In this document: piece by piece, positions 24,341 to 44,408 of the stretch
How the letters are laid out: every line of letters begins with the position of its first letter
Numbering within the stretch: the stretch's first letter is position 1
Origin: an uncultured Actinomycetes bacterium
Lineage (GTDB): Bacteria > Actinomycetota > Thermoleophilia > Gaiellales > Gaiellaceae
Reading direction: 5' to 3'
Assembly: GCA_963702655.1 (NCBI GenBank)
Contig: CAVPDO010000012.1
Span: 107,204-171,203 of the forward strand
Length of the DNA: 64,000 bases
Notes under the pieces: model-generated
The model's input: only the letters and a program-made list of their open reading frames with translations
Told to the model about the DNA's origin: nothing
The model's database searches: none
Made by a program: the position numbers and the translations under genes

Positions 24341-25028
24341 GGGCACGATCGGAGCCGGCAGACCCACCGGGGGCTATGCCCCGCTCGAGCATCCGACTGT
24401 TCTCGTCGCGGACGACGACGTGCCGCACCGTCGCGGAGTGCGCGCCGGACTCGAGGCGCACGGCTTCATCGTGGTCGCCGAGGCCGGAGAAGCCGCCCAG
24501 GCGGTCTCCTCGGCTTCCCGCCTGCGACCGAACGTCTGCCTGATCGACGTCGAGCTGGCCGGCGGCGGCCTGAACGCTATCGCCCGGATCGCGAAGGCGT
24601 CACCCGGCTCGCTGATCGTCGTACTGAGCGCGTCGGAACGTGCCGGAGACGTCGTCGCAGCCGTGGCCCGCGGCGCTTCCGGCTACCTGCTCAAGGGGCT
24701 CGACGACGAGCATCTCGCCTCCGCTCTGCGGGCCGCCTTCGCCGGCGAGCCGGCGGTCTCGCGGTCGCTCGTTCCTCACCTGGTCGCCGAGATCAGACGC
24801 GAGTCCACGCGCCGGCTGACGATGCAGGAGGGTGCCGTGACCCTGACCCCACGCGAATGGGAGGTGGGAGAGATGCTGGTGGCCGAGAGCTCGACTATAG
24901 AGATCGCGGACCGCCTCGGTGTCTCCCCCGTCACCGTCCGCAGGCATGTCGGCCAGCTCCTGCGCAAGCTCGGCGTGGAGACCCGTGGGGAAGCCGTCGA
25001 CGTGCTCCGCACCTACGGCTGGCGCTGA
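24246..25028 (+). CDS. NarL/LuxR-family response regulator (start uncertain)
   Basis: Receiver domain (VLVADDD, CLIDVEL, VVLSAS, YLLKG) plus a LuxR HTH (LTPREWEVGEML...STIEIADRLGVSPVTVRRHV). The only in-frame canonical start is TTG 24246, which overlaps the sortase gene by 95 nt. Confidence 0.8.
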   Translation: MPRSATSSTPTSPRSIPGTANRCDRRCWRLPRGTIGAGRPTGGYAPLEHPTVLVADDDVPHRRGVRAGLEAHGFIVVAEAGEAAQAVSSASRLRPNVCLIDVELAGGGLNAIARIAKASPGSLIVVLSASERAGDVVAAVARGASGYLLKGLDDEHLASALRAAFAGEPAVSRSLVPHLVAEIRRESTRRLTMQEGAVTLTPREWEVGEMLVAESSTIEIADRLGVSPVTVRRHVGQLLRKLGVETRGEAVDVLRTYGWR

Positions 25029-25176
25029 GATCTGCCAGCGCTTTTTCGAGCCCACCCGGACCTGAGTCGACGTCGGACTGGACGTCCGGCGGGCAGGCCG
25101 GCACGGCTGCCGCGCAACGATGCACCCGACAGGCACGCCCCCGCGCAGACAGTCAGGCCTCCTTGGGCCCGCAGGG

Positions 25177-25872
25177 TCAGGACGTCGATTCGAGCGTCAG
25201 AGTCAGGGGGCGTGTCTGCCTTACCTTTTGCGCCACCGAGGCCAGGTGCCGGCGTACGGTCACGACCGACAGCCCGAGCTCGTGCGCGATCTCCTTCGGC
25301 GTCATCCCCTCGCGGCGCCGCGCCATCACGTCGGCCTCGCGGCGCGTCAGCTCGACCGGAGGGCCGTCCGCCGAGACGTGCTTCTCGCGCAACTCGCCGC
25401 GCACCTGTTCGATCAGGGTGACGACCGCAGCCCGCGGGATCACCGCCTCGCCGCGGAAAGCGACCTCGACGGCGCGCGCGAGCCCTCCGGCTCCGATCGT
25501 CTCGGGAACGAAACCGATCGCCCCGGCCCGAAGGGCGGCGAGCAGCACTTCCTGGTCGAGCACCGGCGCGACGACGAGCACCGGGACCGTGGGGGCCTGC
25601 TCGACGATGCGTCGCACGGCGGCGAAGGAGCCACCCGGAACGTGGACGTCGACGAGCGCGACTCCGGCGTGCTGCAGGGAGGTGGCCTCGGTCGCAGCGG
25701 TCACGTCGGACGTATCGGCGACCACGTCCCAGCCGAAGCGCATAAGGACGCTGCGGCGCGCCGCGCGAACGAGCCCCAGACCGCCGACCAGCACGATCGT
25801 GCGCGGCGACTCATCGGGCGTGGCCGAGGCGGCGACGCAACCAGCAGAATGGGATGTCAACGAAGCGTCCAA
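25177..25872 (-). CDS. LuxR-family regulator with an atypical receiver domain
   Basis: LuxR HTH (LTRREADVMARRREGMTPKEIAHELGLSVVTVRRHL). The receiver keeps ALVDVHVPG, but the N-terminal acidic pair is replaced (IVLVGGLG). Confidence 0.8.
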   Translation of the reverse strand: MDASLTSHSAGCVAASATPDESPRTIVLVGGLGLVRAARRSVLMRFGWDVVADTSDVTAATEATSLQHAGVALVDVHVPGGSFAAVRRIVEQAPTVPVLVVAPVLDQEVLLAALRAGAIGFVPETIGAGGLARAVEVAFRGEAVIPRAAVVTLIEQVRGELREKHVSADGPPVELTRREADVMARRREGMTPKEIAHELGLSVVTVRRHLASVAQKVRQTRPLTLTLESTS

Positions 25873-26030
25873 ATCGCCACAGTGGCTCGCCCGTCGAATC
25901 GTTCACCGCAGTGCGTCGAGCCGCACCCAGAGAATGTACGTAGCGCTCACGCGGCGCAATCCCCCCGCCGAGTGATAGTCGGCAGCCCGGCTACCGATTA
26001 GGCCGCGCGGGGGGAAGGCTCAGCCGCTGC

Positions 26031-26948
26031 TCAGCGCGGGTCGCCGAACTCGTCGACCAGGGCACGATACGTCGCGGCGAGCCCCTCCTCCAGGCCGATC
26101 TCGGCCTGCCAGCCGAGCTGCTCGCGCGCCCGTCCCGAGTCGAGGCAGCTCCGCTCGAGCTCTCCCTCCCGCAGCGGCGCGAGCTCCGGTTCGACCGCCG
26201 CGCCGGCGGCGGCCTGCAGCAGCTCCCAGAGGCGGGACACCGGCGTCTCGACACCGGTCGAGACGTTGTAGACGCCCGGCCGGCCGAGGGCCGCGAGATG
26301 CGCCCGGGCGACGTCGTGCACGTGCACGTAGTCGCGCGTCGGCTTCCCGAATCCGAACAGGGTCGGAGTCTCGCCGTGCGACAGCTGGTGGCTGAAGATC
26401 GCGACCACACCCGCCTCGCCGTGCGGGTTCTGCCGCGGCCCGTAGACGTTGGCGAGCCTGCAGACCGCGTGGGGAGCCCCACTCGCTTCTCTCCACGTCG
26501 TCACGTAGGCCTCGGCGGCCCACTTCGAGGCGCCGTACGGAGAGATCGGGGCGGGAGGCGTGTCCTCGGACGCCGGCAACGTCGCGCCGTTGCCGAACAG
26601 GGCTCCGCCGGTCGAGGTGAAGACGACAGGCGCGCCGTGGCGTGTGGCTCCCTCGAGGACGTTCAGCGTCCCGCGCACGTTGACCTCGAGATCCCGCCCG
26701 GGGTCGGCGACGGAACGCGTGACGCTCGCCTGCGCCGCGAGGTGGAAGACCGCCTCCGGCCGCGCTGCATCGACCACGGCGTCGAGCGCCGCCCGGTCGG
26801 TGATGTCGACGACCTCGAGCGTGGCGGTGTCTGCCACGCGCTTGGAGTCTCCGGTGGAGAGGTCGTCGACGACCACCACCCGCCAGTCGTCCGCAAGCAG
26901 TGCGTCGACGACGTGTGAGCCGATGAAGCCCGCGCCGCCCGTGACCAT
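26031..26948 (-). CDS. NAD-dependent sugar epimerase (UDP-glucose 4-epimerase-like SDR)
   Basis: MVTGGAGFIGSH, a YGASK catalytic motif and NVYGPRQ. Only the ATG-26948 portion of ORF 26031..27410 is taken. Confidence 0.9.
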   Translation of the reverse strand: MVTGGAGFIGSHVVDALLADDWRVVVVDDLSTGDSKRVADTATLEVVDITDRAALDAVVDAARPEAVFHLAAQASVTRSVADPGRDLEVNVRGTLNVLEGATRHGAPVVFTSTGGALFGNGATLPASEDTPPAPISPYGASKWAAEAYVTTWREASGAPHAVCRLANVYGPRQNPHGEAGVVAIFSHQLSHGETPTLFGFGKPTRDYVHVHDVARAHLAALGRPGVYNVSTGVETPVSRLWELLQAAAGAAVEPELAPLREGELERSCLDSGRAREQLGWQAEIGLEEGLAATYRALVDEFGDPR

Positions 26949-27095
26949 CGCGCATCTGTTCGACACCGTGTTCCTCCCGAAGTGAGTGCGTGGATCCCGT
27001 CGAACCTTAGAGACGAAGCGGCGACTCGACCGCCGGTGAGTGCGGCCCCCCCGTTCGGTGGACGACATCGATAGCGCCCGCAACATACTGGGCGT

Positions 27096-27548
27096 GTGGC
27101 GCAACGTCTGCCCCGCCGTCCGCTCGAGAGCCAGTTCGCCCGCTTCTGCGCGGTCGGCGCCTCCGGTTACGCAGTCAACCTCGCCGTCTACGCAGCACTG
27201 CTTCAGGCGGGGCTCCACTACCTCGCCGCGGCAGCGATCGCGTTCCTCGTCGCGGCCGCGAGCAACTACGCGTGGAACCGCACCTGGACGTTCCACACCG
27301 CCGGTGCGCCCGTGCTGGGCCAGGGAGCCCGCGCCCTCGTCGTCTCGGCGCTCTCGCTCGCGGCGAACCAGCTCTTCCTGGTCGTCCTCGTCGCGGCGGG
27401 CGCGCACCACCTCGCCGCTCAGGCGGTGGCGATCATCCTCGCCACGCCGTTCAGCTTCGCAGCGAACAAGCTGTGGGCGTTCGCGGAGCCGGCCTCCGTC
27501 GGCGCGCTGCAGCCGGCTGCAGTGCGGCCGGGCCGGCGCGACCGCTAG
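27096..27548 (+). CDS. GtrA-family membrane protein
   Basis: FARFCAVGASGYAVNLAVY...NYAWNRTWTF...FSFAANKLWAF; 4 TM helices. Confidence 0.85.
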   Translation: MAQRLPRRPLESQFARFCAVGASGYAVNLAVYAALLQAGLHYLAAAAIAFLVAAASNYAWNRTWTFHTAGAPVLGQGARALVVSALSLAANQLFLVVLVAAGAHHLAAQAVAIILATPFSFAANKLWAFAEPASVGALQPAAVRPGRRDR

Positions 27549-27563
27549 CCGGCCACTCCCGGC

Positions 27564-28232
27564 CTAGCGGGTCGTCTCGCGGAAGAACGCGATCGCCTGT
27601 TCGCGGTCCTTCACGCCGAGCTTGCGGACGATGGAGGAGATGTGGGCGCGGACGCCGCTCTGCTTCAGCTGCAGCCGCCGTCCGATCTCACGCGTCGACA
27701 TGCCGTCGGCCAGCGCCGCGAGGACGTCCCACTCGCGGCTCGTCAGCCGCACGCCGAGCTCGCCCGACACGGCCGTCGTGCGGAAACGCGGGTCGCTCGC
27801 ATGGAACTCCTTGACCAGGCGCGCGACCAGGGTCCGCGGAAGCGCGGCCTTGCCGTCGACGACGTCCTGCAGCGTGCGAGGCAGGAGGCTCAGATTGAGA
27901 TCCTTGACGAGGTAGCCGACCGCCCCGGCCCGGAGCGCGGAGAAGAGGCTCGCGTCGTCGTCCGAAACCGTGAGCATCACGACCTTCGTGGTTGGCAGGC
28001 GCGCCGAGATCTCCCAGGCGGCCGCGACGCCGCTGCCCGGCATGCGGAGGTCGAGCAGGCAGATGTCGGGCCTGGTCTCGAGCGCCTGCTGCACGGCGCG
28101 TGCCGCATCCGCGGCCTCGGCGCAGACGATCAGACCGCCGTCGGTCAGCGCGCGCCGGACGTCGTCGCGGGTCGGAGCGTGGTCGTCGGCGATGAGCACG
28201 CGGAGCGGTACGGCCGGCGCGGCGGCGTTCAC
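27564..28232 (-). CDS. NarL-family response regulator
   Basis: VLIADDH, CLLDLRMPG, VVMLTVS, YLVKD, plus a LuxR HTH (LTSREWDVLAALADGMSTREIGRRLQLKQSGVRAHI). GTGA overlap with the kinase gene. Confidence 0.9.
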   Translation of the reverse strand: MNAAAPAVPLRVLIADDHAPTRDDVRRALTDGGLIVCAEAADAARAVQQALETRPDICLLDLRMPGSGVAAAWEISARLPTTKVVMLTVSDDDASLFSALRAGAVGYLVKDLNLSLLPRTLQDVVDGKAALPRTLVARLVKEFHASDPRFRTTAVSGELGVRLTSREWDVLAALADGMSTREIGRRLQLKQSGVRAHISSIVRKLGVKDREQAIAFFRETTR

Positions 28233-29596
28233 AGCTCGAGCTCCACCTTGGTCCCGGCGCCGCGGCGCGAGTCGATCCGCAGCTTCCCGCCCAGCGCCTC
28301 GGCCCGCTCCTTCATGGTGACCAGGCCGTAGCCGCGCAGCGCTCCCTCGACGAAGCCCGCGCCGTCGTCGACGATTCCGAGCCGCATGCCCGCCTCGAGG
28401 CGCTCGAGGTAGACCCGCAGCACGTCCGCACCGCTGTGCTCCGCAGCGTTCGCCACCGCCTCGGACGCGATCCGCACCACGGCTTCCCGTTCCCGCGGCG
28501 AGAGGACGATGCCGCTGTCCAGCTCCATGTCCACGGCCGCCCCGTAGCGGCGGGCCGCCTCCCTGGTCGCTGCGGCGATTGCGTCCTCGAAGGGCTCGTC
28601 GGCCCTGGCCGAGAGCGCACCGACCACGCGCCGCGACTCCTCCTGCGCGCGCCCCACGCCGCGGAGGATCCGCTCGACGAGCTCGGGGTCCGGTCCCTGC
28701 TCCCGCAGGAGCCGGACGTTGCGGGCGATGAACGCGATCTCCTGGGCCAGCCCGTCGTGCACGTCGCGCGCAAGCCGGCGCCGCTCCTCGAGCGACGCGG
28801 CCGCGACGACGCTCGTCCAGTAGGAGGCGATTTCGCGCGCGGCCCCGATCAGCAGGGCGAGGTAGGAGCCGAGACGGAAGACGTCGCCCGTGTAGACCCA
28901 ATTGGGATGGAGCGACGGATGGAAGAAGTAGTTGACGTGACTCGCGGCCGACAGGATGCAGGCGATGACGAGCCAGGCGCTGAGCTCGTCCGCGGCGAAA
29001 CGCTGGCGCCGCGCGAAACCGAACGCCGCCAGGATGTACAGCGCTGCCAGCGCGAGCTGCAAGGTGCCGATGAGACCCGCCTGTGTGCCCTGCGCGGACG
29101 CGGACACGGTGATGCCGCTCGGGAGCAGTCTCGTATCGACCGCCAGCGGGACCGTTCCGGCGAGCGCGAGCGCCGTCGTGCAACCGAAGATCCGCAGCGC
29201 CCAGTGAGGGCCGACCGCCAGTCGCCGCCGGGGCAGGAGCGCGGCAATGGAGATGAGGGCCGCGGCCAGGAGGTTGGTGAAGAACATGTTCCAGACCGTC
29301 GCGCGGTTCGACTGCAGATCGAAGACGGCAGGCAGAGCGGCGAAGGCGAGGTTGGAGAAAGCGAGCAGCGCGAGTCCCGCCGACAGAATCAGCTCGTCGA
29401 GGAGACCGCTGCGGCGGAAGCGGCCGAGGAAGAGAAAGGCCGCTGCCGAGGCGGCGAGCGCCGCAGTCGTCTCGAGGGCGACGTGCACCCCCGGCGCCCG
29501 GACGGCGAAATCGAGCCTCGCGACGAATGCGATCACGATGGTCGCCACCGCCGACGCCACCGCGCACCCGTACGCAAGCCTCCTGAGCCGCACCAC
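28229..29596 (-). CDS. Sensor histidine kinase (HisKA_3/NarX-like)
   Basis: Six or more TM helices. H-box RRLARDVHDGLAQEI and HATPase motifs (EAVANAAEHSGA, IVDDGAGF, GYGLVTMKERAEALGG). Confidence 0.9.
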   Translation of the reverse strand: MVRLRRLAYGCAVASAVATIVIAFVARLDFAVRAPGVHVALETTAALAASAAAFLFLGRFRRSGLLDELILSAGLALLAFSNLAFAALPAVFDLQSNRATVWNMFFTNLLAAALISIAALLPRRRLAVGPHWALRIFGCTTALALAGTVPLAVDTRLLPSGITVSASAQGTQAGLIGTLQLALAALYILAAFGFARRQRFAADELSAWLVIACILSAASHVNYFFHPSLHPNWVYTGDVFRLGSYLALLIGAAREIASYWTSVVAAASLEERRRLARDVHDGLAQEIAFIARNVRLLREQGPDPELVERILRGVGRAQEESRRVVGALSARADEPFEDAIAAATREAARRYGAAVDMELDSGIVLSPREREAVVRIASEAVANAAEHSGADVLRVYLERLEAGMRLGIVDDGAGFVEGALRGYGLVTMKERAEALGGKLRIDSRRGAGTKVELEL

Positions 29597-29739
29597 GACG
29601 CCTTAGCTTCACCGCGCGGCGAAGGCGAGCGGCCAGCTTTATGGCTGGACCCGGCTCCCGGTTCGGCTACGGATGGAATCGAGCCGCAAGGGGAATGTGC
29701 CGGGCGACGCCGAAGAACGACAGCTGCAGAGGTGCTTTT

Positions 29740-30033
29740 GTGAACGCCGTTCCCCAGCTTGCACCCGACGAGCCGCTCTCACCCGAGCTCGTTCTCGTGC
29801 TCCCGGCCGAGCTTCGAGCCCAGGTTCTCGCCGGCCTCGACCTCCCCGCCCGGCCGACACCGAGACCGCTCGCGCGACCAGTTCCGCCTCGGGTTCCGCC
29901 TAGGCCCGCCGAGCCCATCGGGCGATCCGTGGCCAAGCTCGTCGTCGCCCGCTTCGCGCAGCTCGCATTGATCTTCGTCGCCGTCACGATCCTGACCCTC
30001 GCGCTGTCGCTCGTCGCGCAAGCGTTTCGCTGA
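29740..30033 (+). CDS. Hypothetical Pro-rich tail-anchored protein
   Basis: GTG at 29740, in frame with ORF 29641..30033. C-terminal TM helix (LALIFVAVTILTLALSLVAQAF). No homology evidence. Confidence 0.3.
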   Translation: MNAVPQLAPDEPLSPELVLVLPAELRAQVLAGLDLPARPTPRPLARPVPPRVPPRPAEPIGRSVAKLVVARFAQLALIFVAVTILTLALSLVAQAFR

Positions 30034-30207
30034 CGGTGCCGACCAAGGTCCTGGCCGGACCAGACCATCGTCCGGACTGGAGCGCCGCCGTGGTGTCGAA
30101 ACCGTGAGCAGACGCGGACGATGCACGGCATCCACAGACGGTGATGTCTCCTCGGACCCGGCGGGTCAGGACGTGTCACCAGAACTCGATGCCGTGCGCG
30201 GGCCGCG

Positions 30208-30681
30208 CTAGCCGCTCCGTGCAGCGATCGGCTCCACCACGTCCGCGGGCGCTTTCTTTCGAAGCGTGATGAAGAGCCAGAGGTACATGCCGAGGATCAG
30301 GAACGCGTTCACGGGATGGAGCGCCCCGACCCAGCGTCCCCCTCCGGGCAGGATCATCTGCACGAACGTCAGGATCGGCACCAGGATCGACACGACGCGG
30401 ACGCGGGTGTTCGGGTGCCACGCGATCAGTGCGCAAATCAGGAAGAGAAGCGCGCCGGGGAGCGTGAGGATGAACCCGAGCGCGCGGTGCGCATCGAGCG
30501 TCTTGGAGTTGCCGATGCAGTGCTCGGCCGCCAGATTGGCGCCTTTCTTGTCGCAGTCGTCCGAATGCTGGATCACCTTCAACCCGAAGATTCCCTCGCC
30601 CGCGAGGTAGACCTGGATCACGATCAGCACCACGTAGAGCGCCGAGAACCACTTGAGAACCGCCGTCGCGCCGCGCCGCAT
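30208..30681 (-). CDS. Small 4-TM membrane protein (resembles the DUF6220 type)
   Basis: ATG at 30681 with an AAAGGAG SD 8 nt upstream. VVLIVIQVYLAGEGIFG ... DAHRALGFILT ... ALHPVNAFLILG. Confidence 0.6.
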   Translation of the reverse strand: MRRGATAVLKWFSALYVVLIVIQVYLAGEGIFGLKVIQHSDDCDKKGANLAAEHCIGNSKTLDAHRALGFILTLPGALLFLICALIAWHPNTRVRVVSILVPILTFVQMILPGGGRWVGALHPVNAFLILGMYLWLFITLRKKAPADVVEPIAARSG

Positions 30682-30718
30682 CGTCTGACTCCTTTGCCGT
30701 CGTTTGCCGACGCGCGGG

Positions 30719-30755
30719 AGGCTACTACTCCCGCGTCCCGGAATCGTTACGGCGC
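30719..30755 (-). promoter_or_regulatory. Copy a of the conserved 22-bp element plus a -10-like TAGCCT
   Basis: Minus strand reads GCGCCGTAACGATTCCGGGACG, with ACGATT-N17-TAGCCT. It overlaps the stop codon of 30747..31931 and lies 37 nt upstream of ATG 30681. Confidence 0.55.
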
Positions 30756-31931
30756 CGCGCGCACCCAGACGGTCACGTGGGCCGGCTCGAGCGAGCGGGC
30801 TGCAGCATCGGCGAGCTCGTCGACGACCGTCTCGACGTCGACCGCGTCGCGGAGCCGTGTGCCGAACGCCACGACGGTCGCCTCGGAGTCGTAACGGGCC
30901 CGGTTGAAGCGGCGATCGACGAGACGCTGCAGCCGGAACCGCAACGGCGAGAAGAGCGCTGCCGCGGCGAGCGTCGAGGCCGCGACCCCGACCGGGCTCG
31001 AGAACGGCAGCACCCGCGTGGTCAGCAGGACGATTCCTGCGAAGACGCCGACCAGGAGCCCGGTGAGCAGCGTGTAGGACAGCGTCCGCGAGATCAGCCG
31101 GTCGATGTCGTAGAGCCGGTAGCGCAGGACCCCGACGCCGATCGAGATCGGCAGCGCGACGAGCCCGAGGAAGCCGGCCTTCCCGACCACCGAGATGATC
31201 CCGTGGTTCCCCGAGCCGACCGAGATCGCGATGAAGAAGCCGAACACCGCGAACGACCCTCCGGCCAACAGCCACTTCAGCTGCTGCCGGCGATCACCGG
31301 TCGAGCGGCGGTAGAGGACGACCTGGCGGACGACCCATGAGAGCGCGATCGCGAAGAAGGGGAGCACGACGGCGACGAACGCGGCGTTGTTGCCGTTGGC
31401 GCCGAGCTGCTTCAGCTCGCCGGAGGAGTCAATCCTGATCGGGTGGTCCGTGAAGGCGCCGAGATCCGTGTTGGTGAGATGGCCGACCAGCACGGCCACA
31501 AGCGCGATGTACGTCCAGAGCGTCCAACGCCAACGTCGCGAGACCTGGCCGTCGGGGAAGAAGAGGATCGGCAGAGGCAGAAGCACGAGCATCGACGCCC
31601 ATCCCTGGGTCAGGAAGACGGCGAGGCGCGAGAGTGGAAGGCCGTGATGGTCGATGCGGTAGGCACGGACGGCGTAGAAGCCCGCGTCAGCGCCGTAGGA
31701 GGCGGTGATGGCGATCGCGAGCAGAAGCCAGCCGATCGGGTTCCGCGGCTGCCGGCTCGCCACGAGCGCGCCCACGGCCGCGAACGGGATCATCAGCAGC
31801 TGCTGTCCGACTCCGCCGAGGGTGAGCTGATGTGCGACTGCCGACAGCGGGAAGGCCGCCAAGATCAGCACGCCGGCGGCCGCGCCGAGCCAGAGCGCAA
31901 GCTTCGAGTGCGGTTGTGCGCGCGCGCTCAC
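30747..31931 (-). CDS. Sensor-like polytopic membrane protein without a kinase domain, paralog 1
   Basis: QPRNPIGWLLL motif, about 9-10 TM helices and a conserved C-terminal module: LRYRLYDIDRLISRTLSYTLLTGLLVGVF...PFSSPVGVAASTLAAAALF...VDRRFNRARYD...LEPAHVTVWV. Confidence 0.8.
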   Translation of the reverse strand: MSARAQPHSKLALWLGAAAGVLILAAFPLSAVAHQLTLGGVGQQLLMIPFAAVGALVASRQPRNPIGWLLLAIAITASYGADAGFYAVRAYRIDHHGLPLSRLAVFLTQGWASMLVLLPLPILFFPDGQVSRRWRWTLWTYIALVAVLVGHLTNTDLGAFTDHPIRIDSSGELKQLGANGNNAAFVAVVLPFFAIALSWVVRQVVLYRRSTGDRRQQLKWLLAGGSFAVFGFFIAISVGSGNHGIISVVGKAGFLGLVALPISIGVGVLRYRLYDIDRLISRTLSYTLLTGLLVGVFAGIVLLTTRVLPFSSPVGVAASTLAAAALFSPLRFRLQRLVDRRFNRARYDSEATVVAFGTRLRDAVDVETVVDELADAAARSLEPAHVTVWVRAAP

Positions 31932-33118
31932 CGCTTGATCCAGACGCTGACGTGGGTGGGCTCGAGCGAGGCGCCGGCGGCAGCGGCGAGCTCGTCAAGG
32001 ACGGTGTCGACGTCGACCGCGTTCCGCAGTCGCGCCGCGAACGCGGAAACGGTCAGTTCGGCGTCGTAGTGCGCGCGGTTGAAGCGGCGATCGACGACGC
32101 GTTGAATCCGGCGGCGGAGAGGGTTGAAAAGCGCGAGCGACGCCAGCGTCGAGGCAGCGACCCCGACCGGCGAGGAGAACGGCAGCACGCGGGTCGTCAG
32201 CAGTACGAGCCCGGCGAAGACACCCACGAGCAAGCCGGTCAGGAGCGCGTAGGAGAGCGTGCGCGAGATCAGCCGGTCGATGTCGTACAGCCGGTAACGC
32301 AGGATCCCGATGCCGATCCCGATCGGAAGGCCGAGCAGCGCCAGCGTGCCGAGATAGCCGACTAGGGCGAAGACGCCGGAGCCGTTGTGTCCGATGATCG
32401 TCACGAGCCCGCCCGCCACTGCCAGCGCCGCGCCGGCCATCAGCCACTTCAGCTGCACCCGCCGCACGCCGGTAGCCCGTCGATAGCCGGGAATCTGGGC
32501 GACGATCCACGCGAGCCCGACGCCGAGGACGATGAAGAAGAACACGTTCTGGTAGATGCTCCACCAGGCCCAGGCTCCGGTCGGATGGTCCTCGAGAAGC
32601 AGGTTGCCGGTCGAGTCGATGCGCACCCGGCCGGTAACGACCGCATCGACGGCGATCCCGTATGCGGCGGTGAGCCAGACGACGCAGCCGACACCGAAGC
32701 CGCCGAGCGGCAGGCGCCAACGTCCCGGCGGGAGCTCGCCGTCCGGGAAGAGCAGGATCGAGAGGGCGAGCAGCGCGATCCCGGGCGCCCACGAGGGCTG
32801 GAGCAGGACGGCAAGCCGGCCGAGGGGCAGGCTCCCGTGATGGTCGCGGTAGTCGAGCACCGAGTAGCTCGACGCCGCGTCGTCGAAGGAGAGAAAGAGC
32901 GCGCAGCCGAGGAGCACCCAGCCCATCGGGTTCCGGGGTTGTCGCCAGGCGACGATGAGACCGACGATCCCGAAGCCCGGGATGAGGACGATCGAGCCGC
33001 CGTCACCGGCGCTGAAGCTGTGGTCGGCCGCAGTGAAGACCACGGCTGCGACCGCGAGCAGGATCGTCGCGATTCCCAGCGCGAAAGCCGTCCCGGGCGT
33101 CGCGAGTCGGCGTGGCAT
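31928..33118 (-). CDS. Sensor-like polytopic membrane protein without a kinase domain, paralog 2
   Basis: ATG at 33118 (MPRRLATPG). Same architecture as paralog 1. GTGA overlap with paralog 1. Confidence 0.8.
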   Translation of the reverse strand: MPRRLATPGTAFALGIATILLAVAAVVFTAADHSFSAGDGGSIVLIPGFGIVGLIVAWRQPRNPMGWVLLGCALFLSFDDAASSYSVLDYRDHHGSLPLGRLAVLLQPSWAPGIALLALSILLFPDGELPPGRWRLPLGGFGVGCVVWLTAAYGIAVDAVVTGRVRIDSTGNLLLEDHPTGAWAWWSIYQNVFFFIVLGVGLAWIVAQIPGYRRATGVRRVQLKWLMAGAALAVAGGLVTIIGHNGSGVFALVGYLGTLALLGLPIGIGIGILRYRLYDIDRLISRTLSYALLTGLLVGVFAGLVLLTTRVLPFSSPVGVAASTLASLALFNPLRRRIQRVVDRRFNRAHYDAELTVSAFAARLRNAVDVDTVLDELAAAAGASLEPTHVSVWIKR

Positions 33119-33125
33119 GTGCGGG

Positions 33126-33162
33126 AATCTATTCCTGTTCCGTCCCGGGATCGTTACGGCGC
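33126..33162 (-). promoter_or_regulatory. Copy b-minus of the 22-bp element plus -10 TAGATT (leaderless)
   Basis: Minus strand reads GCGCCGTAACGATCCCGGGACG, with ACGATC-N17-TAGATT, then 7 nt to ATG 33118. Confidence 0.6.
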
Positions 33163-33173
33163 GTAACGATCCC
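33147..33173. promoter_or_regulatory. Perfect 12-3-12 palindrome GGGATCGTTACG-GCG-CGTAACGATCCC in the divergent intergenic region
   Basis: Read directly from the sequence. Each arm forms the -35-proximal part of one of the two divergent promoters. Confidence 0.7.
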
Positions 33174-33194
33174 GTAGCGCGTGAGGCGTAGATT
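33159..33194 (+). promoter_or_regulatory. Copy b-plus of the element plus -10 TAGATT (leaderless)
   Basis: GCGCGTAACGATCCCGTAGCG, with ACGATC-N17-TAGATT, then 6 nt to GTG 33201. Confidence 0.6.
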
Positions 33195-33200
33195 CCTGGC

Positions 33201-34376
33201 GTGGTCGCATGCCACGAACGCATCCGAGTCGCAGCGGCGGCGGCGATCGTGCTGTTCCTCGCTGCCGGGCTCGCGCTAACCGGCGTGACGCACGATCCCT
33301 GGCCCACGAATGACGGGATAGCCCTCGTCGTGCTGACCGCGTACGGCGGCGTCGGTTACGTGATCGCACGGGCCGAGCCGCGGAATCCCATCGGCTGGAT
33401 CTTTCTCGGGCTTGGGTTCTTCACGCTGGCGGACTACCTGAACCGCCTCTACCTGGTTCTCGATTACCGGGAACACGGCGGTGGGCTGCCACTGGGCGGC
33501 ATCGCGGTCTTCTGGCAAGGAAGCTGGTCGCTCTTTCCGATCATCGTCGCCCTGCCGGCGATCGTCCTGTTCCCGGACGGCCGCGTCTCGCAGCGGTGGC
33601 GGAAGCTGCTCTACATCTACGCAGGCGCCACGATCGTCTTCATGACCCTTTCGTTCACGAGTCAGCTCACCGACGGCGTTTCCGGCCGGATCGCCGTCAC
33701 CGTTCGTGGGGATCTCCCGAACAGCGGCGGCGGCCCCTTGGCTTCTGCCGGTTGGGTGCTGGTTCCGTTCTTCCTCGGCTGCTGGATCGCGTTCGTGTGG
33801 CGGCAGGTCAGCGCGTGGCGATCCTCGTCCGGCGTACGTACGGCACAGCTGAAGTGGCTGGCGGCCGGCAGCGCGATACTCGTCGTGTCCTGCATCGTCA
33901 TCGTGATGTTCGGGGACGGCTCGACCGTCGGCTCCCGCGTCGCCGCCGACCTGGCCACCATCGGAATCGGCGTCCTGCCGGTCGCGGTGGGGGTGGCCAT
34001 CCTGCGGTTCCGTCTCTACGAGATCGACCGGCTGATCAGCAGAACGTTGGCGTATGCGCTCCTGACCGGGCTGCTGGTCGGCGTGTTCGGCGGGATCGTG
34101 CTGCTGACCACGCGCGTTCTGCCCTTCTCGTCGCCCGTCGGCGTTGCGGCATCGACCCTTGCTGCGGCCGCGCTGTTCAACCCGCTGCGCCGCCGCGTGC
34201 AGCACCTCGTCGACCGGCGCTTCAACCGCGCGCGCTACGACCGGGACGCACTCGTGGCTCGGTTCGGCGTGCGACTGCGGGATGCGGTCGACTCGGACAC
34301 GGTCGTCGCCGAGCTTGCCGGGGTTGCGGCAAGCTCCGTCGAGCCGGCGCACATCTCCGTCTGGGTGCAGAGCTAA
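33201..34376 (+). CDS. Sensor-like polytopic membrane protein without a kinase domain, paralog 3
   Basis: EPRNPIGWIFL. C-terminal module LRFRLYEIDRLISRTLAYALLTGLLVGVF...VDRRFNRARYD...VEPAHISVWV. Confidence 0.8.
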   Translation: MVACHERIRVAAAAAIVLFLAAGLALTGVTHDPWPTNDGIALVVLTAYGGVGYVIARAEPRNPIGWIFLGLGFFTLADYLNRLYLVLDYREHGGGLPLGGIAVFWQGSWSLFPIIVALPAIVLFPDGRVSQRWRKLLYIYAGATIVFMTLSFTSQLTDGVSGRIAVTVRGDLPNSGGGPLASAGWVLVPFFLGCWIAFVWRQVSAWRSSSGVRTAQLKWLAAGSAILVVSCIVIVMFGDGSTVGSRVAADLATIGIGVLPVAVGVAILRFRLYEIDRLISRTLAYALLTGLLVGVFGGIVLLTTRVLPFSSPVGVAASTLAAAALFNPLRRRVQHLVDRRFNRARYDRDALVARFGVRLRDAVDSDTVVAELAGVAASSVEPAHISVWVQS

Positions 34377-34383
34377 CTCCCGG

Positions 34384-37161
34384 CTACCACTCGACGAGCT
34401 TCCAGATCTCCGGCTCGCTCTGGCCGCCTTCGCCGATCTCGGCGAAGATCGCGACCGCGGACTTGAGGTGCTCCATCGCCTCCTCCCGCCGGCCGGCGGC
34501 GTTGAGGAGGTCGGCGACGTTGTTCGCCAGCGCGGCTTCGCGGTGGCGGTCGCCGACGGCGGCACAGAGCACCAGCGCCTCCTCGGTCAGCTCGAGCGCC
34601 CGCTCCAGCTCGCCCTCGGCGCGCAGGTCGAGCGCGAGGTTGTTGAGCGCCGCCGCGCGGGCCGAGGGGTCGTCCTCCTCGCTCGCCAGCTCGAGGCTGC
34701 GTTCGAGCCGGGAACGCGCCTCCGCGTGGTCGCCGCGGCCGGTGGCGAGGATGCCGAGGATGTTGTGAGCCTGGGCGAGGGCGCGGCCGGTCCCCGGCGG
34801 CGTCGGCGAGCTCCAGCGCCCGCCGGGCCAGCTCCTGCGCCTCGCCGTCGTGGCGTCTGTGGGCCGTCAGGCTTCGATCGGCCAGGAGCCGCGCCTCGAG
34901 CACGTCCGCGTCGTCCGGCAGCGCAGCGAGCGCCTCGGCGAACGAGCTGTCGGCGAGCTCCCACTCGCCGCGACGGAGATGGACGAGGCCGATGCGGTGC
35001 GCGATCGAGGCGAGTCGCTCCGCGGGGGCGAGCGCGGCCGCCGCCTCGTAGCTCTCGAGCGCGGCCGAGTAGTCGCCGCCGAGCGTGAGCAGGTCGCCGA
35101 TCTCCTCGTGCAGCGCCGCCGGATCGTCGTGCCCGAGGCCGAGCGCCTCCCGGAAGTGGGCGTGCGCCTCGGCGTTCGCGTACAGCCCGCGCGCGTGCGC
35201 ACCGGCGACCCGGAACCACTCCGCGGCCTCGGTCTCGCGACCCGCGTCGCGGAGGTGTCGAGCGACCGCGCCGGCGGCGGCGCCGTTCCGGTCGCGTGCG
35301 GCGAGGGCCTCGGCGGCCCGGCGATGGAGCAGGCGACGGCGGCCGGAGCTCGTCAGGTCGACGGCCACCCGGCGTGCCTGCTCGTGCCGGAAGGCGTAGC
35401 CCGCGTCCACCTCGACGAGCAGCCCGCGCCGCATGAGCTCCTCGAGCGACGCGACCGTCTCCTCCTCGTTGCGGCCGCTGACGGTCGCGGATCAGGTCCG
35501 CGTCGAACGGGCGGCCCACCACGGCGGCGGCGGCGAGCACCTGGCCGGCGACCTCGCTCGCCGCGGCGATCCGCGACTCGAGCAGCCGGCGCAAACCGGG
35601 CGGAATGTCCGTCGGCGTCTCCGTCCGGCGGAGCAGTCGAGATACTGCATGACGAAGAACGGGACGCCGTCGCGTCTCCTCGTAGAGCCGCGCCGATGAG
35701 CTCTCGGCGCAGCGCCGGCCGCCTCCGCGAACTCGGCCACGTCGTCGCGGTCCGAGCCGATCGAGACTGGATCGCCGTGCCGAGCCGTCTTGCGCCGGCG
35801 CGGCGAGGATCGCCTCACCGGATGAGTCGGCGGGCGTCTCCTCCGGCCGCCAGGTGAGCAGCAGCAGCACCGGCCGATCCGCGCAGGCGGCGGGTCAGGA
35901 ACGCGAGCAGCTTCGAGCGACGGCGGGTCGGCCCAGTGCGACGTCGTCGACGAACGAGTCACGCCGGGCCGCGTCGCCGGCGGTTGCGTCAAGAGCTCGC
36001 GTGACGCCGTCGAGGAAGCGCGCCTGCGCGCCCGGCCCGTCGAGCGCGGCGCAGGCGACGTGCCGAGCTCGGGGACGCAGCCGCGCGGCCTCGGCCGCGG
36101 CACCGGGATCGACACCGCAGCCGCCGGCCGCGCGCGAGAGCGCCCCGCACAGCTCGATCGCGCAGCCGAACGCCAGCCCGGCCTCGCTCCTCGACGGCGC
36201 GGGCCGACGCGACGCGGAGCCCGCGGCACGCGCCCAGGTCGACGGCAGCTCCTGCGGCCAGCCGCGTCTTCCCGATGCCCGTCTCGCCCTCGAGGACGAC
36301 GAGCCGGCCGTCCGGCCCGACCGCTGCGTAGGCGCCGGAGCGCGGCCCACTCGCGCTTCGCGGCCGACGAGCGGATAGTCGCGCGCCGCCGCCTTCGGGA
36401 GCGGGCATCGGCTCCGGCGACCGGCCGCGCCGGACAGCCCTCGCGCACCGCATGGTAGGCGGCCGTCGTCTCCTCGGTCGGCGCGACTCCGAGCTCGCGG
36501 TGGAGCGTGCGGACGCACTCGCGGTACTGCGCGAGCGCCGCGGCCCGCTCGCCGCTCGCGCCGTAGAGCTCGATCAGCCGCCGGTGAGCCGTCTCGTTCA
36601 GCGGCTCGAGCGCCAGCCGGCGGCGGGCGTGCTCGATCGCGCGCACGTGGCTGCCGCGCGCGCCGAGCCCTTCGGCGAGGCGATCGAGGACGGCGCCGAG
36701 CTCGCGCGCGAGGGTTCCCGCCTGGAGCGACTGCCAGTCGTCGAACGGGGCGCTGTCGCGCAGGCCGAAGCCGGCAAGGAAGGCTCCGCGCTGCAAGCGC
36801 CGCAGCCTGCTCGAGCTCGGCCGAGGTCCGCTGCCGGCCGCGAGCCGACGGAACTCGTCGACGTCGAGCGAGGACGCCTTCCCGCTCGAGCGAGACCGCG
36901 TCGCGCGCGACGGCGAGCCAGCGCCCGCCGAGCGCCGAGCGCAGCGTCGAGAGCGTGCGCCGCAGCGCCGCGCGCGCGCGGTCGGGCGCGTACTCGGGCC
37001 ACAGCAGCTCCGCCAGCACGTCGCGTCCGTGCCGGCCCTGCTCGACGCGCCAGATAGGCGAGCAGCGCGGTCGCCTTGCGCGTGTCGACCGTGAGCGGAA
37101 CGCCGTCGCAGAGCGCCTCCGGAGGGCCGAGGAGCGACAGCCGCAGCGTCGAGTCGCCCAC
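34384..37161 (-). pseudogene. AfsR/SARP-like regulator (winged-helix + BTAD + NB-ARC-type ATPase + TPR), with a dozen or more frame changes as given
   Basis: Fragments in three frames stitch into one protein. MGDSTLRLSLLGPPEALCDGVPLTVDTRKATALLAYLA / VLAELLWPEYAPDRARAALRRTLSTLRSAL. BTAD: FLAGFGLRDSAPFDDWQ...NETAHRRLIELYGASGERAAALAQYRECVRTLHRELGVAPTEET. P-loop: LVVLEGETGIGKTRLA. Then LLLLTWRPEE, GVPFFVMQYL and TPR repeats ending ...EIWKLVEW-TAG. Confidence 0.85.
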
Positions 37162-37201
37162 AGCACGATCCTAGACGCAACGAGCCGCAGGGCATAGCGT
37201 T

Positions 37202-37238
37202 GCGCCGTAACGATTTCGGGACGGTCGTCCCGTAGAAC
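37202..37238 (+). promoter_or_regulatory. Copy c of the 22-bp element plus a -10-like TAGAAC
   Basis: GCGCCGTAACGATTTCGGGACG, with ACGATT-N17-TAGAAC, then 9 nt to ATG 37248. Confidence 0.55.
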
Positions 37239-37247
37239 GGGAGCGGA

Positions 37248-38862
37248 ATGAGCGCCTGGCCACAGTCGATCGCGAGAGTCATCCGCCGGACGGAGCGCCC
37301 CACCGCAGCGGCGGAGGCCACCGCCGTCGAGACCGACGTCGGAGCCCCAGGAGCAGCTCGACGTCCGCCCGATCGAGATCTCGCCGAACGATCCGATCGT
37401 CGCCTACTTCCAGAGCGCCCCCGGCGCGGTCGACCTCGAGGAGCTCGAACTCGAGTCGCCGGCGCTGACTGCGCTGCGCGCGGCGGGCGTGAAGCTCGCG
37501 GTGCCGCTCGTCAGCCAGGGCGAGCTCGTCGGCCTGCTCAACCTCGGCCCGCGGCTCTCGGACCAGGACTACTCCACCGACGACCGGAAACTGCTCGACT
37601 CGCTCGCCGCGCAGGCCGCGCCGGCCCTGCAGGTGGCGCAGCTCGTACGTCGGCAGGAGGCGGAGGCGCGGTCGCGCGAGCGGATCGAGCAGGAGCTGCG
37701 CGTAGCGACGACGATCCAGCAGAACTTCCTGCCGCGCGAACTGCCCGACCTGCCCGGCTGGGACGTCTCCGCCTACTACCGCCCGGCGCGGGAGGTCGGC
37801 GGCGACTTCTACGACTTCATCGGGCTGCCGGAGGGTCACATCGGGATCGTGATCGGCGACGTCACCGACAAGGGCGTCCCGGCGGCGATGGTCATGGCCG
37901 CAACGCGAAGCGTCCTGCGCGCCTCGGCCCAGCGCGTCGTCTCCCCGGGCGAGGTGCTCGGGCGAGTCAACGACCTCATGTGCCCGGACATGCCGTCGAA
38001 GATGTTCGTCACCTGCCTCTACGGCGTGCTCGAGTCCGCCACGGGGCGCTTCACCTTCGCGAACGCCGGCCACAACCTCCCCTACGTGCGCACCGACGGC
38101 GGCTCGGCCGAGCTGCGCGCGACCGGGATGCCGCTCGGGCTGCTGCCGGGGATCGCGTACGAGGAGACCGAGGCGCAGCTCGAGCCCGGGCAGACGATGC
38201 TCCTCCACTCCGACGGCGTCGCCGAGGCGCACGGGCCGGGCGCGGAGATGTTCGGCTTCCCGCGGCTTCAGGACGTGGTGGGCGCCCGCAGCGGGCGCGG
38301 CGAGGTGATCGACCGCGTCCTCACCGAGCTCGGGCGCTTCACCGGCTCCGACTGGGAGCAGGAGGACGACATCACTCTCGTCGCGCTGACGCGGTACGGG
38401 GCGGCGCCGGTGGAGTCCGCGGGCAGGCTAGACGTCTCGTTTCAGGTCGCGAGCGAGCCCGGCAACGAGAAGCAGGTGAGCGAGCGGGTGGCCGAGGCGA
38501 CTGCGCCGCTCGCGCTCCCGGCGGCGCGGCTCGAGCAGCTCAAGACCGCCGTGGCCGAGGCGGCCATGAACGCGATCGAGCACGGCAACGAGAGCCGGGC
38601 CGAGCTTCCCGTCGACGTCTCCGTGCGTGCCTCCGACGCCGAGCTCGTGGTGGCGATCACCGACCACGGCGGCGGCCGCGAGATCCCCGAGGCGGAGGAG
38701 CCCGACCTCGAGGCGAAGCTCGACGGGCTGCAGAAGCCCCGCGGCTGGGGCCTCTTCCTGATCCAGAACATGGTCGACGACATCCGCGTCTCGAGCGACG
38801 AGAGCACGCACACGATCGAGCTCGTCATGCGACTGGAACGGGGCGGCAATGGAAGCGACTGA
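37248..38862 (+). CDS. GAF-like / PP2C (SpoIIE) phosphatase fused to an RsbW-like HATPase domain; +1 frameshift at the C-run 37345-37348
   Basis: The frame from ATG 37248 continues in the 37489 frame (...EQLDVRPIEISPNDPIVAYFQSAPGAVDLEELELESPALTALRAAGVKLAVPLVSQGELVGLLNLGPR). PP2C motifs: GGDFYDF, IGDVTDKGVPAAMVMA, LLHSDGV, DDITLVAL. HATPase: AVAEAAMNAIEHGN, ITDHGGG, GWGLFLIQNMVD. Length is 1 mod 3. Confidence 0.85.
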
Positions 38863-39179
38863 GTTCGCGGCGAGCGCGCGCCGCGCAGGACGGCGTGGCC
38901 GTGCTGGAGCTCTCCGGCGACGTGAGTGCGGGAGCAGAGAGCGAACTGCAGCTCGCCTACGGCCAGGTGGCCACGGAGCCGGTCGTCGTGCTCGACTTCG
39001 CCGCCGTCGACTACATCAACTCGACCGGAATAGCCCTGATCGTCGGGCTCCTGGCCCAGGCGCGCAAGAGCGGACAGGAGGTCCGCGCGCGGGGGCTGGC
39101 CCAGCACTACCGGGAGATCTTCCGCATCACGCGGCTCTCGGACTTCATGACCATCCTCGACGAGGAGGAAGCGGAATGA
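38849..39179 (+). CDS. STAS-domain anti-sigma-factor antagonist 1 (+1 frameshift near 38871-38885)
   Basis: DGVAVLELSGDV...VVLDFAAVDYINSTGIALIVGLLAQARKSGQEVRARGL..HYREIFRITRLSDF. ATG 38849 is in another frame, and no canonical in-frame start precedes the domain. Length is 1 mod 3. Confidence 0.75.
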
Positions 39180-39529
39180 CGCAGGACACTGCGGCGACGA
39201 TGGAGGTGCATCTCGCCGGCGCCGAGCTGGGCGTGATCACCGTCCGGGGCGACGTCACGGCCGGTTCGGAGGACGCCCTGATGGACGCCTACACGCGAGC
39301 CGCGGAGGGCTCGCCACGGGCCATCCTGCTCGACTTCTCCGGGCTCGAGTACATGAACTCGGGCGGAATCGGCCTGCTCGTGACGCTGCTCGTCCGCGCC
39401 AACCGCGCGAGGCAGCGGCTGCTCGCCTGCGGGCTCAACGACCACTACCGCCAGATCTTCGAGCTGACCCGCCTCGACGAGGCGATCTCGATCTTCACGA
39501 ACGAGGCCGAGGCGCTGGCCGCGTTGTGA
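39176..39529 (+). CDS. STAS-domain anti-sigma-factor antagonist 2
   Basis: ATGA overlap with STAS1. ILLDFSGLEYMNSGGIGLLVTLLVRANRARQRLLACGLNDHYRQIFELTRLDE. Confidence 0.85.
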   Translation: MTQDTAATMEVHLAGAELGVITVRGDVTAGSEDALMDAYTRAAEGSPRAILLDFSGLEYMNSGGIGLLVTLLVRANRARQRLLACGLNDHYRQIFELTRLDEAISIFTNEAEALAAL

Positions 39530-39550
39530 GGCGAACACGTTGAGGAGGAC

Positions 39551-40270
39551 ATGATGAGCGAGCAGCAGAACACGGCACGCGACCAGGGCAACTGGGCGAC
39601 TCCGGTCGACCGGCTCGCCGCGACGAACATCCCGGCGGGCGCGCTCGACACGGTCGGCGGCAAGCAGGTCGTCTCGCCGATCCAGGGCTTCGGGAAGATG
39701 TGGCAGAAGACGTACCGCATCTCGCTGGCCGGGACGGACGTGTCGCCGGCCGAGCTGATCCAGACGTGGAAGGACGAGTTCCCGAGCTTCTGGCCGAAGG
39801 GCAGCCAGTTCCACGCGCCGCTGACCGGGATCGCGCCCGGAGAGGTGGCGCTGCTGCAGGCATCCGTGGGCGGCGGCATGAAGCTGTCCACCGGCGTCTT
39901 CGTCCTCTACGCCGACGAGAACTCGTTCACGTTCATGACGCCCCAGGGGCACATGTTCGCGGGCTGGATCACGTTCTCGGCGGCCGAGGAGGACGGCGCG
40001 ACGATGGCGCAATGCCAGGTGCTGATGCGGGCCCAGGACCCACTGACCGAGGTCGGACTCGTGCTCGGCGGCCACCGCAAGGAGGACCGCTTCTGGCAGG
40101 ACACCATGCGGGCGCTGGCGGCCCGGTTCGGCATCGAAGCCGAGCCGGAGACGAGCGTCGTGTGCGTCGATAAGCGGCGCCAGTGGGGACGTGCCGGAAA
40201 CGTGCGCCACTCGAGCGCCTTCCGCTCGAGCGTCCACACCGCAACCGCGCCGCTCCGGAAGCGCAAGTAG
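39551..40270 (+). CDS. Conserved-looking hypothetical protein (family not recognised)
   Basis: Clean ORF with good GC3 (GFGKMWQKTYRI...FTFMTPQGHMFAGWITF). Confidence 0.6.
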   Translation: MMSEQQNTARDQGNWATPVDRLAATNIPAGALDTVGGKQVVSPIQGFGKMWQKTYRISLAGTDVSPAELIQTWKDEFPSFWPKGSQFHAPLTGIAPGEVALLQASVGGGMKLSTGVFVLYADENSFTFMTPQGHMFAGWITFSAAEEDGATMAQCQVLMRAQDPLTEVGLVLGGHRKEDRFWQDTMRALAARFGIEAEPETSVVCVDKRRQWGRAGNVRHSSAFRSSVHTATAPLRKRK

Positions 40271-40280
40271 CCTCAGCGGC

Positions 40281-44408
<4,128 letters not shown>

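Follow-up and report, generated by a model that had tools for sequence, protein, structure and literature searches.

We analyzed a 64,000-nt stretch of DNA (the window; contig CAVPDO010000012.1 of assembly GCA_963702655.1, positions 107,204 to 171,203) from an uncultured bacterium of the family Gaiellaceae, in which a 22-bp element, here called the box, recurs in front of genes for membrane proteins and of a PP2C/STAS operon. The G+C content of the window was about 70%, and the gene layout was derived from third-position G+C content and Pfam. Four copies of the pattern CGTAACGATyyCG(G/T)(G/A)(A/G)CG were found. Box a (C-CGTAACGATTC / CGGGACGCGGG, 30731-30752, minus strand) precedes a gene encoding a DUF6220-like membrane protein of 157 aa (30208-30681, minus strand; Pfam and frame plot) and overlaps the stop codon (30747-30749) of paralog A, the gene upstream. 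Box b- (C-CGTAACGATCC / CGGGACGGAAC, 33138-33159, minus strand) and box b+ (G-CGTAACGATCC / CGTAGCGCGTG, second repeat weaker, 33161-33182, plus strand) stand back to back, 3 nt apart, in a divergent spacer. From box b- an operon is read with paralog B as its first gene (396-aa membrane protein, 31928-33118, minus strand) and paralog A as its second (394-aa membrane protein, 30747-31931, minus strand); paralog C (391-aa membrane protein, 33201-34376, plus strand) lies downstream of box b+. The three paralogs share 46-53% protein identity with each other, and neither they nor a 419-aa relative in a locus from another genome (L001) could be assigned to a family in Pfam or NCBIfam.

Box c (C-CGTAACGATTT / CGGGACGGTCG, 37205-37226, plus strand) precedes an operon on the plus strand, which begins with a GAF-PP2C(SpoIIE)-HATPase_c_2 gene (37248-38862; conserved start MSAWPQSIAR) and continues with genes for STAS protein 1 of the anti-sigma-antagonist type (38849-39179), STAS protein 2 (39179-39529), and a weakly DUF1990-like protein of 239 aa (39551-40270), always the last in the conserved operon. 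In the window, the first gene carries a frameshift between 37301 and 37336, and that of STAS protein 1 carries one in its first ~14 codons. Between paralog C and box c, a gene for an AfsR-like large SARP, with winged helix, BTAD, P-loop NTPase, and TPR domains, was found on the minus strand (34384-37161); it is frame-disrupted in the window, while its orthologs are intact. No correctly placed box was found before the SARP gene of the window, which has its own -10-like hexamer TAGGAT (37168-37173, minus strand) 6 nt from the GTG at 37161; TAsGAT or TAGCAT is kept there in loci L001 and L003-L008.

Each copy of the box consists of two 11-bp direct repeats, YCGTAACGATy and YCGGrACGnnn, and the heptamers CGTAACG-N4-CG(G/T)(G/A)(A/G)CG stand in an 11-bp register in all four. 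Box coordinates given here are those of the paired 11-bp units. In the frame of an earlier note on this DNA, the same sites were read as 22-mers at 30734-30755 (-), 33141-33162 (-), and 37202-37223 (+), with a shorter fourth copy at 33159-33179 (+). In the 64-kb window, the 22-mer had three matches at up to three mismatches, with 0.01 expected, and the core GTAACGAT occurred four times, with 0.28 expected; no further copies of the core were found. Neither did the region 30000-38000 contain an Rfam match at E ≤1.

Downstream of the boxes, -10-like hexamers were found: TAGCCT for box a (30719-30724, minus strand), TAGATT for box b- (33126-33131, minus strand), TAGATT for box b+ (33189-33194, plus strand), and TAGAAC, with C as its sixth base, for box c (37233-37238, plus strand). 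The start codon follows at 7 nt for box b- (ATG 33118, a leaderless geometry), 6 nt for box b+ (GTG 33201), and 9 nt for box c (ATG 37248); box a is followed by a 37-nt leader with AAAGGAG before ATG 30681. The earlier note had reported four copies with their positions and sequences, the absence of any other exact copy, the succession of ACGATY, 17 nt, and one of these hexamers, and the four gaps to the start codons, and all of this was confirmed by direct reading of the window and by the search for the core. Its two heptamers in an 11-bp register were also present, the second ending 9 nt before the hexamer; the unit, on the other hand, should be described as 2 x 11 bp including the leading pyrimidine. 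The ACGATY at the -35 position matches TTGACA in 2/6 bases, and a consensus promoter scan of 30500-37400 found no sigma-70-type -35/-10 pair; the -35 element is poor or absent. The sole terminator-like site in the same interval lies inside the DUF6220-like gene, at chance level.

Homologs of paralog C occur in soil metagenomes and Gaiellaceae-like metagenome-assembled genomes (MAGs). Eight loci (L001-L008) were fetched via these homologs and represent seven distinct contexts, L002 duplicating part of L001. All eight contain the same cluster with an intact regulator gene, including L007 and L008, at 53-55% identity and with rearranged gene order. The core CGTAACGATyyCGgrACG precedes the DUF6220-like gene (absent from L008), the divergent paralogs where these are present, and the PP2C gene in all loci, with diverged flanks. 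Boxes orthologous to box a were found in L001, L003-L006, L050, L056, and L078. In L001 and L005, an extra paralog is inserted between the regulator and PP2C genes, with a separate box for each gene.

The divergent spacer of the window contains a perfect palindrome, CGGGATCGTTACG-GCG-CGTAACGATCCCG (33146-33174), which overlaps both promoters. The 12-3-12 palindrome described earlier is present, and its full extent is 13-3-13. Such a sequence might be read by a repressor as its operator, boxes a and c being half-sites, but we find this highly improbable. Boxes a and c, as well as most sites elsewhere, are single and oriented, and the palindrome does not include the second repeat, which is nonetheless conserved and linked to the -10 hexamer. 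The palindromic operator was rejected as a candidate: no inverted repeat with a spacing fixed everywhere was found, only the divergent spacer being palindromic with a gap of 1-3 nt. Since the gap between back-to-back boxes varies between genomes (3 nt in the window and 1 nt in L006), the palindrome is best seen as incidental to a pair of independent promoters.

When 185,579 species genomes were scanned for CGTAACGATYYCGGRACG, at least 118 stretches matched; the copies per genome and the taxonomic range are likewise lower bounds. The matches listed were mostly in MAGs labeled as Actinomycetes, Thermoleophilia, Gaiellales, Solirubrobacterales, and Acidimicrobiia, and several were labeled Chloroflexota, Limnocylindrales, or Dormiibacterota. 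Among these matches, 123 of the 184 scored sites had the start of a same-family gene within 400 nt downstream in the same orientation; the families were PP2C (41 sites), the paralog family (66), DUF6220-like (11), DUF1990-like (4), and SARP (1). Conservation of the element before orthologous genes in related genomes, which the earlier note had named as a check, was found down to 53-55% protein identity, and the paralogs, the DUF6220-like gene, and the PP2C/STAS operon are the families that carry it across related loci. Other boxed genes encode ABC-transporter ATPase-like, SRPBCC-like (recognized by eye), and FAD oxidase-like proteins and secreted proteins. Distant sites, hundreds of kb apart, were found within one MAG (L033/L113 on one contig, L037/L060, L035/L108); therefore, the predicted regulon reaches beyond the cluster.

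Several near-identical copies within 6.5 kb before paralogous genes could also be a dispersed repeat resembling repetitive extragenic palindromes (REP) or miniature inverted-repeat transposable elements (MITE), or the remains of a duplicated promoter, and have no role in regulation. This can scarcely be credited, given that the paralogs are just 46-53% identical and their flanks differ while the box is retained, and that it is also retained across classes and phyla where the surrounding DNA has diverged. No terminal repeats or target duplications accompany it. Every box points to a gene, and the spacing to a -10 signal is constant. A REP/MITE-like repeat, which the earlier note had named as an outcome that would refute a regulon, is largely refuted by the 123 sites oriented to same-family genes and by the fixed -10 offset.

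The anatomy of the site was calculated from 144 non-redundant sites drawn from the matches listed. Position 0, outside the search pattern, is a pyrimidine in 130/144 sites; position 11 is one in 143/144, although the search pattern itself demanded a pyrimidine there in the pattern-selected sites. Because a pyrimidine precedes each repeat, the unit is written as YCGTAACGATy + YCGGrACGnnn. Perfect repeat pairs also exist, for example CGTAACG-ATGC-CGTAACG in L027. A T-A-n-n-n-T signal was found at positions 28-33, again outside the search pattern, with T in 84, A in 111, and the final T in 88 of the 144 sites, and nAnnnT occurred at offset 28 in 78/144 sites compared with ~3/144 at other offsets among unselected positions. 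The 3' heptamer ends 9 nt before this signal (8 nt if the unit is taken as an 8-mer). An ATG or GTG lies 5-9 nt past the hexamer in 69/144 sites, with a peak at 6-7 nt; by family, this was the case for PP2C in 24/29, the paralog family in 38/55, and the DUF6220-like genes in 0/11 sites. The fixed -10 distance claimed in the earlier note is therefore supported by the TAnnnT signal and by the peak of start codons at unselected positions, and the mRNAs are predicted to be mostly leaderless or near-leaderless. With +1 placed at the first base of the start codon (6-nt gap, as at 33201), an inferred start site, the box spans -40 to -19.

The letters of the first repeat suggest another explanation, in which the box is the -35 element of an alternative-sigma promoter, the sigma factor being either SigD-type, of the extracytoplasmic function (ECF) group, or one under the PP2C/kinase/STAS partner-switching module. 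The operon does encode an RsbW/SpoIIAB-like kinase domain and two anti-sigma-antagonist-like STAS proteins. The -10 regions of SigB/F-type promoters read GGGTAC, and GGTACAAC, common to the PP2C promoters, loosely resembles this sequence. Moreover, GTAACG agrees with the reported -35 consensus of Mycobacterium tuberculosis SigD, GTAACGct, and at about -35 is common to the SigD promoters of mycobacteria and corynebacteria (PMC13537577). Still, we consider a sigma-factor element unlikely. The conserved TA is located 20 nt past GTAACG, too far for a spacer of the sigma-70 family, and if the -35 is placed at GGAAC in the second repeat, a conserved -10 element is missing 16-17 nt on, positions 34-39 carrying less than 0.15 bit. 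SigD promoters differ from the sites described here in the spacing to -10, and the presence of another conserved repeat within the spacer is not explained by a sigma factor. The TAnnnT form of most hexamers is that of the housekeeping type, and no sigma gene was found in the conserved cluster (L001-L008), the last gene of which encodes the DUF1990-like protein. An ECF SigD-type promoter was rejected: a -35-like hexamer is present, but no -10 element lies at ECF distance with either repeat as the -35. The 239-aa protein was also tried as a hidden sigma factor and ruled out, having a weak DUF1990 match and no NCBIfam match.

The relation of the box to the SARP gene was analyzed in 80 metagenome loci chosen by SARP similarity alone. 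The box was found in 8/8 loci of this set that have at least 46% SARP identity and include upstream DNA (seven detected by weight matrix, with a weak score of 18.1 in L130, and L128 by eye), and in 1 of ~69 loci below 46% identity. Thus, the box tracks one SARP ortholog group. Three relatives at 29-32% identity carry different pairs of heptamers at divergent promoters of their own, with N9-10 between the pair and TAnnnT: CGTCACG three times followed by N9-TATACT in L138, TGTAACG-N4-TGTAACG-N10-TACGCT in L144, and TGTGACG-N4-TGAGACG-N9-TATACT in L190; therefore, the repeat sequence changes with the regulator subfamily. In loci with enough sequence, the PP2C operon nearly always has the SARP gene as a neighbor, which is the sole conserved DNA-binding gene of the cluster (L001-L008 and the genome-scan loci). 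In the window, tblastn with an intact ortholog detected a single SARP-like gene (34387-37161), in agreement with the earlier note, which had placed the only such gene amid the boxed targets and named it as the candidate reader of a SARP-type site; published SARP geometry, synteny, and the co-occurrence in protein-selected loci all agree with that proposal.

A winged-helix regulator of the OmpR/PhoB type encoded elsewhere, such as a GlnR-like orphan response regulator, could also bind two repeats of this kind. GlnR boxes have the form gTnAc-n6-GaAAc (a-site/b-site), which the letters GTAAC-N6-GGAAC fit, and such regulators also bind 11-bp direct repeats. The targets here are not nitrogen or phosphate genes but the same five or six families travelling with the SARP gene, and the box was found only with one SARP ortholog group. 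The two-component pair encoded nearby is of the NarL/GerE type and is absent from L005-L008, and the fixed placement from -40 to -19 is the SARP pattern. A regulator from outside the cluster therefore seems very unlikely to us.

Orthologs of the SARP-like regulator are intact proteins of 906-930 aa. An OmpR-type winged helix is followed by BTAD, detected by Pfam; residues 15-257 align to EmbR residues 10-260 in a single-sequence search of the PDB (E 2e-8, PDB 2FEZ), and the ortholog profile matches AfsR residues 24-349 (E 2e-22) and EmbR residues 8-269 (E 5e-17). The P-loop NOD and the C-terminal TPR region were found in the L004 ortholog (AAA_16, 2e-26; TPR_12, 2e-17), and the motif GETGIGKTRL is also encoded in the window copy. 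Across 16 orthologs, whose overall identity is only 39-84%, the DNA-binding region (DTRKA..., LLWP, LRRTLS) does not vary.

Several features of this regulator and its promoter were observed in addition. The orthologs of L030, L054, L055, L101, L111, and L122 have an H-x-H-x5-6-C-x2-C insertion between the winged helix and BTAD (alignment columns ~118-135), which resembles a small metal-binding knuckle and is absent from the lineage of the window. Directly upstream of the SARP gene's own -10 hexamer, on the opposite strand, a heptamer CGCAACG or CGTAACG is conserved at the same place in L001 and L003-L008 (37174-37182 in the window, GACGCAACG), 30 bp before box c and out of the 11-bp phase; this heptamer may serve autoregulation as a half-site or belong to the SARP promoter. 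An octamer just upstream of box c (37190-37197, ATAGCGTT), conserved at this place in L001 and L003-L006, looks like a degenerate, inverted version of the first repeat and coincides in part with the -35 position of the SARP promoter.

Known SARP sites consist of direct repeats at a spacing of 11 or 22 bp, the 3' repeat and the -10 element being separated by 8 bp, and the afs box of AfsR is a 22-bp site spanning -40 to -19 that overlaps a poor -35 element, the first 8 bp of each repeat being contacted (PMC10936776). The boxes described here share this arrangement: their direct repeats are spaced by 11 bp, about 8 bp separate the 3' repeat from the -10 hexamer, and the box overlaps the -35 position, as judged from predicted start sites. 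A SARP gene is associated with them, as judged from synteny and restriction to one ortholog group. AfsR and the afs box of the afsS promoter in Streptomyces coelicolor (PMC10936776; PDB 8K60, 8JKE, 8HVR) are among the closest known systems. The regulator shares its four parts with AfsR (OmpR-type winged helix, BTAD, P-loop NOD, TPR), and the site shares with the afs box two 11-bp direct repeats with the first 8 bp conserved, the poor, overlapped -35 element, and the placement from about -40 to -19; in both systems, the -10 element is suboptimal in part of the targets. The repeats differ from those of AfsR in sequence (YCGTAACG / YCGGrACG), and in place of afsS the targets comprise membrane paralogs and a partner-switching operon. 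The mRNAs are predicted to be mostly leaderless, and the system is hosted by uncultured Thermoleophilia, Acidimicrobiia, and Chloroflexota; the proteins share little overall identity, the relation being found by profile only (E 2e-22).

Pathway-specific small SARPs of the ActII-ORF4, DnrI, and RedD type also read heptamers that recur directly in an 11-bp register, the last of them 8 bp before -10 (PMC10936776), and their genes, too, lie beside the targets and often in divergent orientation. They differ in controlling antibiotic clusters and in lacking NOD and TPR, whereas no biosynthetic genes were seen here; the box is nearly unchanged across phyla, as would be unusual for a pathway-specific regulator. 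In a single-sequence search, the N-terminal 250 residues have EmbR of M. tuberculosis (PDB 2FEZ), with winged helix and BTAD, as their best structural relative, but EmbR has an FHA domain, is driven by a Ser/Thr kinase, lacks NOD and TPR, and has no comparable defined box.

Taken together, the sequence data indicate that the box is probably the activator site of the neighboring AfsR-like large SARP at mostly leaderless promoters with a -10 element only. A SARP dimer would bind side by side, head to tail, on YCGTAACGATy and YCGGrACGnnn, so that the two 11-bp repeats would occupy the place of the missing -35 element. From this position the dimer would bring RNA polymerase, loaded with the housekeeping sigma factor, to the TAnnnT hexamer, which lies 9 nt downstream. 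Transcripts of the membrane paralogs and of the PP2C/STAS operon would have no leader or almost none, that of the DUF6220-like gene would have one, and the P-loop and TPR part of the regulator would gate its activity. The set of boxes would define a regulon of membrane sensor-like paralogs, the DUF6220-like protein, and the PP2C/kinase/STAS operon. What we observed is the box itself, standing at a fixed distance from the -10 signal and start codons, confined to one gene set, and occurring together with one SARP ortholog group; binding, activation, the start sites, and the signal are what we infer from this.

Several facts weigh against an activator site of the SARP. The SARP gene of the window has no intact frame: it is split over frames -2, -1, -2, -1, -2 plus further breaks, with at least five frame disruptions. 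This count was taken from tblastn because nucleotide alignment to L004 over-calls indels in the divergent middle. This could mean that the boxes of the window are orphans or that the assembly is of poor quality here. Because the genome-scan sites were chosen with the pattern itself, part of the conservation within positions 1-18 was built in. In addition, 61/184 sites have no recognized family gene downstream, some of them being chance matches in unrelated phyla. Most PP2C promoters, like box c, have a hexamer ending in C (TACAAC or TAGAAC) and hence lack the usual T at position 6, and several have a GGAG-like stretch between hexamer and ATG, so that the PP2C start site could lie elsewhere.

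The frameshifts of the window cluster in 34384-38900 (at least five in the SARP-like gene, one in PP2C, and one in STAS1), and about 20 other window genes compared with L001 and L004 are each in one frame. Several of the indels occur in GCGCG-type contexts, and many related contigs are long-read MAGs. The frameshifts reflect either a locally poor assembly consensus or recent inactivation of the system.

The flanks of the cluster were compared with L001 over 24438-41715. Flanking genes have 95-100% protein identity, the paralogs 77-82%, and the SARP pieces 67-95%; as identity drops there, the paralog/regulator segment is a local divergence hot spot between otherwise near-identical genomes. A HisKA_3 histidine kinase and a GerE-type response regulator (27567-29596) adjoin the cluster in the window, L001, and L004; this pair is outside the conserved module, because it is absent from L005-L008. 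In the window, an FAD amine-oxidase-like gene (40183-41718) follows the operon. Regarding known defense systems, PADLOC gave a generic TPR match only and thus no support.

Boxes were also found before other SARP-adjacent genes (L068 at 3607, L096 at 1500, L111 at 6700, and L087 at 5821; L061, L115, and L126; L085), which were recognized as ABC ATPase-like, SRPBCC-like, and FAD amine-oxidase-like from translated N-termini only. Upstream of the PP2C operon, L070, L092, L095, L061, and L096 carry up to about ten paralog-family genes in tandem, a sign of strong lineage-specific expansion. In proteobacterial and myxococcal MAGs (L012, L051, L109), the pattern is matched exactly inside open reading frames whose translations share the motif FNYR...HVFVGV; these matches look like coincidences in coding sequence, possibly that of an amino-acid biosynthesis enzyme.

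The mechanism appears to be of a known kind, and in the literature searched we found no description of the box sequence, its targets, or its phylogenetic range. To our knowledge, almost all that is known of SARPs concerns the switching of antibiotic clusters in Streptomyces. More tentatively, the cluster might represent an undescribed, multi-phylum signaling system in which an AfsR-like STAND regulator switches on arrays of fast-diverging seven-transmembrane (7TM)-like membrane proteins together with a sigma-less partner-switching module (GAF-PP2C-kinase, two STAS proteins, and a DUF1990-like protein) that feeds back on the regulator; such a non-antibiotic SARP circuit, older than the Streptomyces paradigm, is possible but doubtful.

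With the box as a probable SARP site, the same promoter logic appears in abundant uncultured soil Actinomycetota and in Chloroflexota-labeled genomes, with an 18-bp core almost unchanged across classes and with fixed targets, the membrane sensor-like paralogs and a PP2C/kinase/STAS phosphorelay without an adjacent sigma factor. The natural variants of box and regulator (CGTAACG, TGTAACG, CGTCACG, TGTGACG) provide material on how SARP domains read DNA. For proteins currently without assigned function, the defined box, candidate regulator, and defined targets would constitute a testable regulon.

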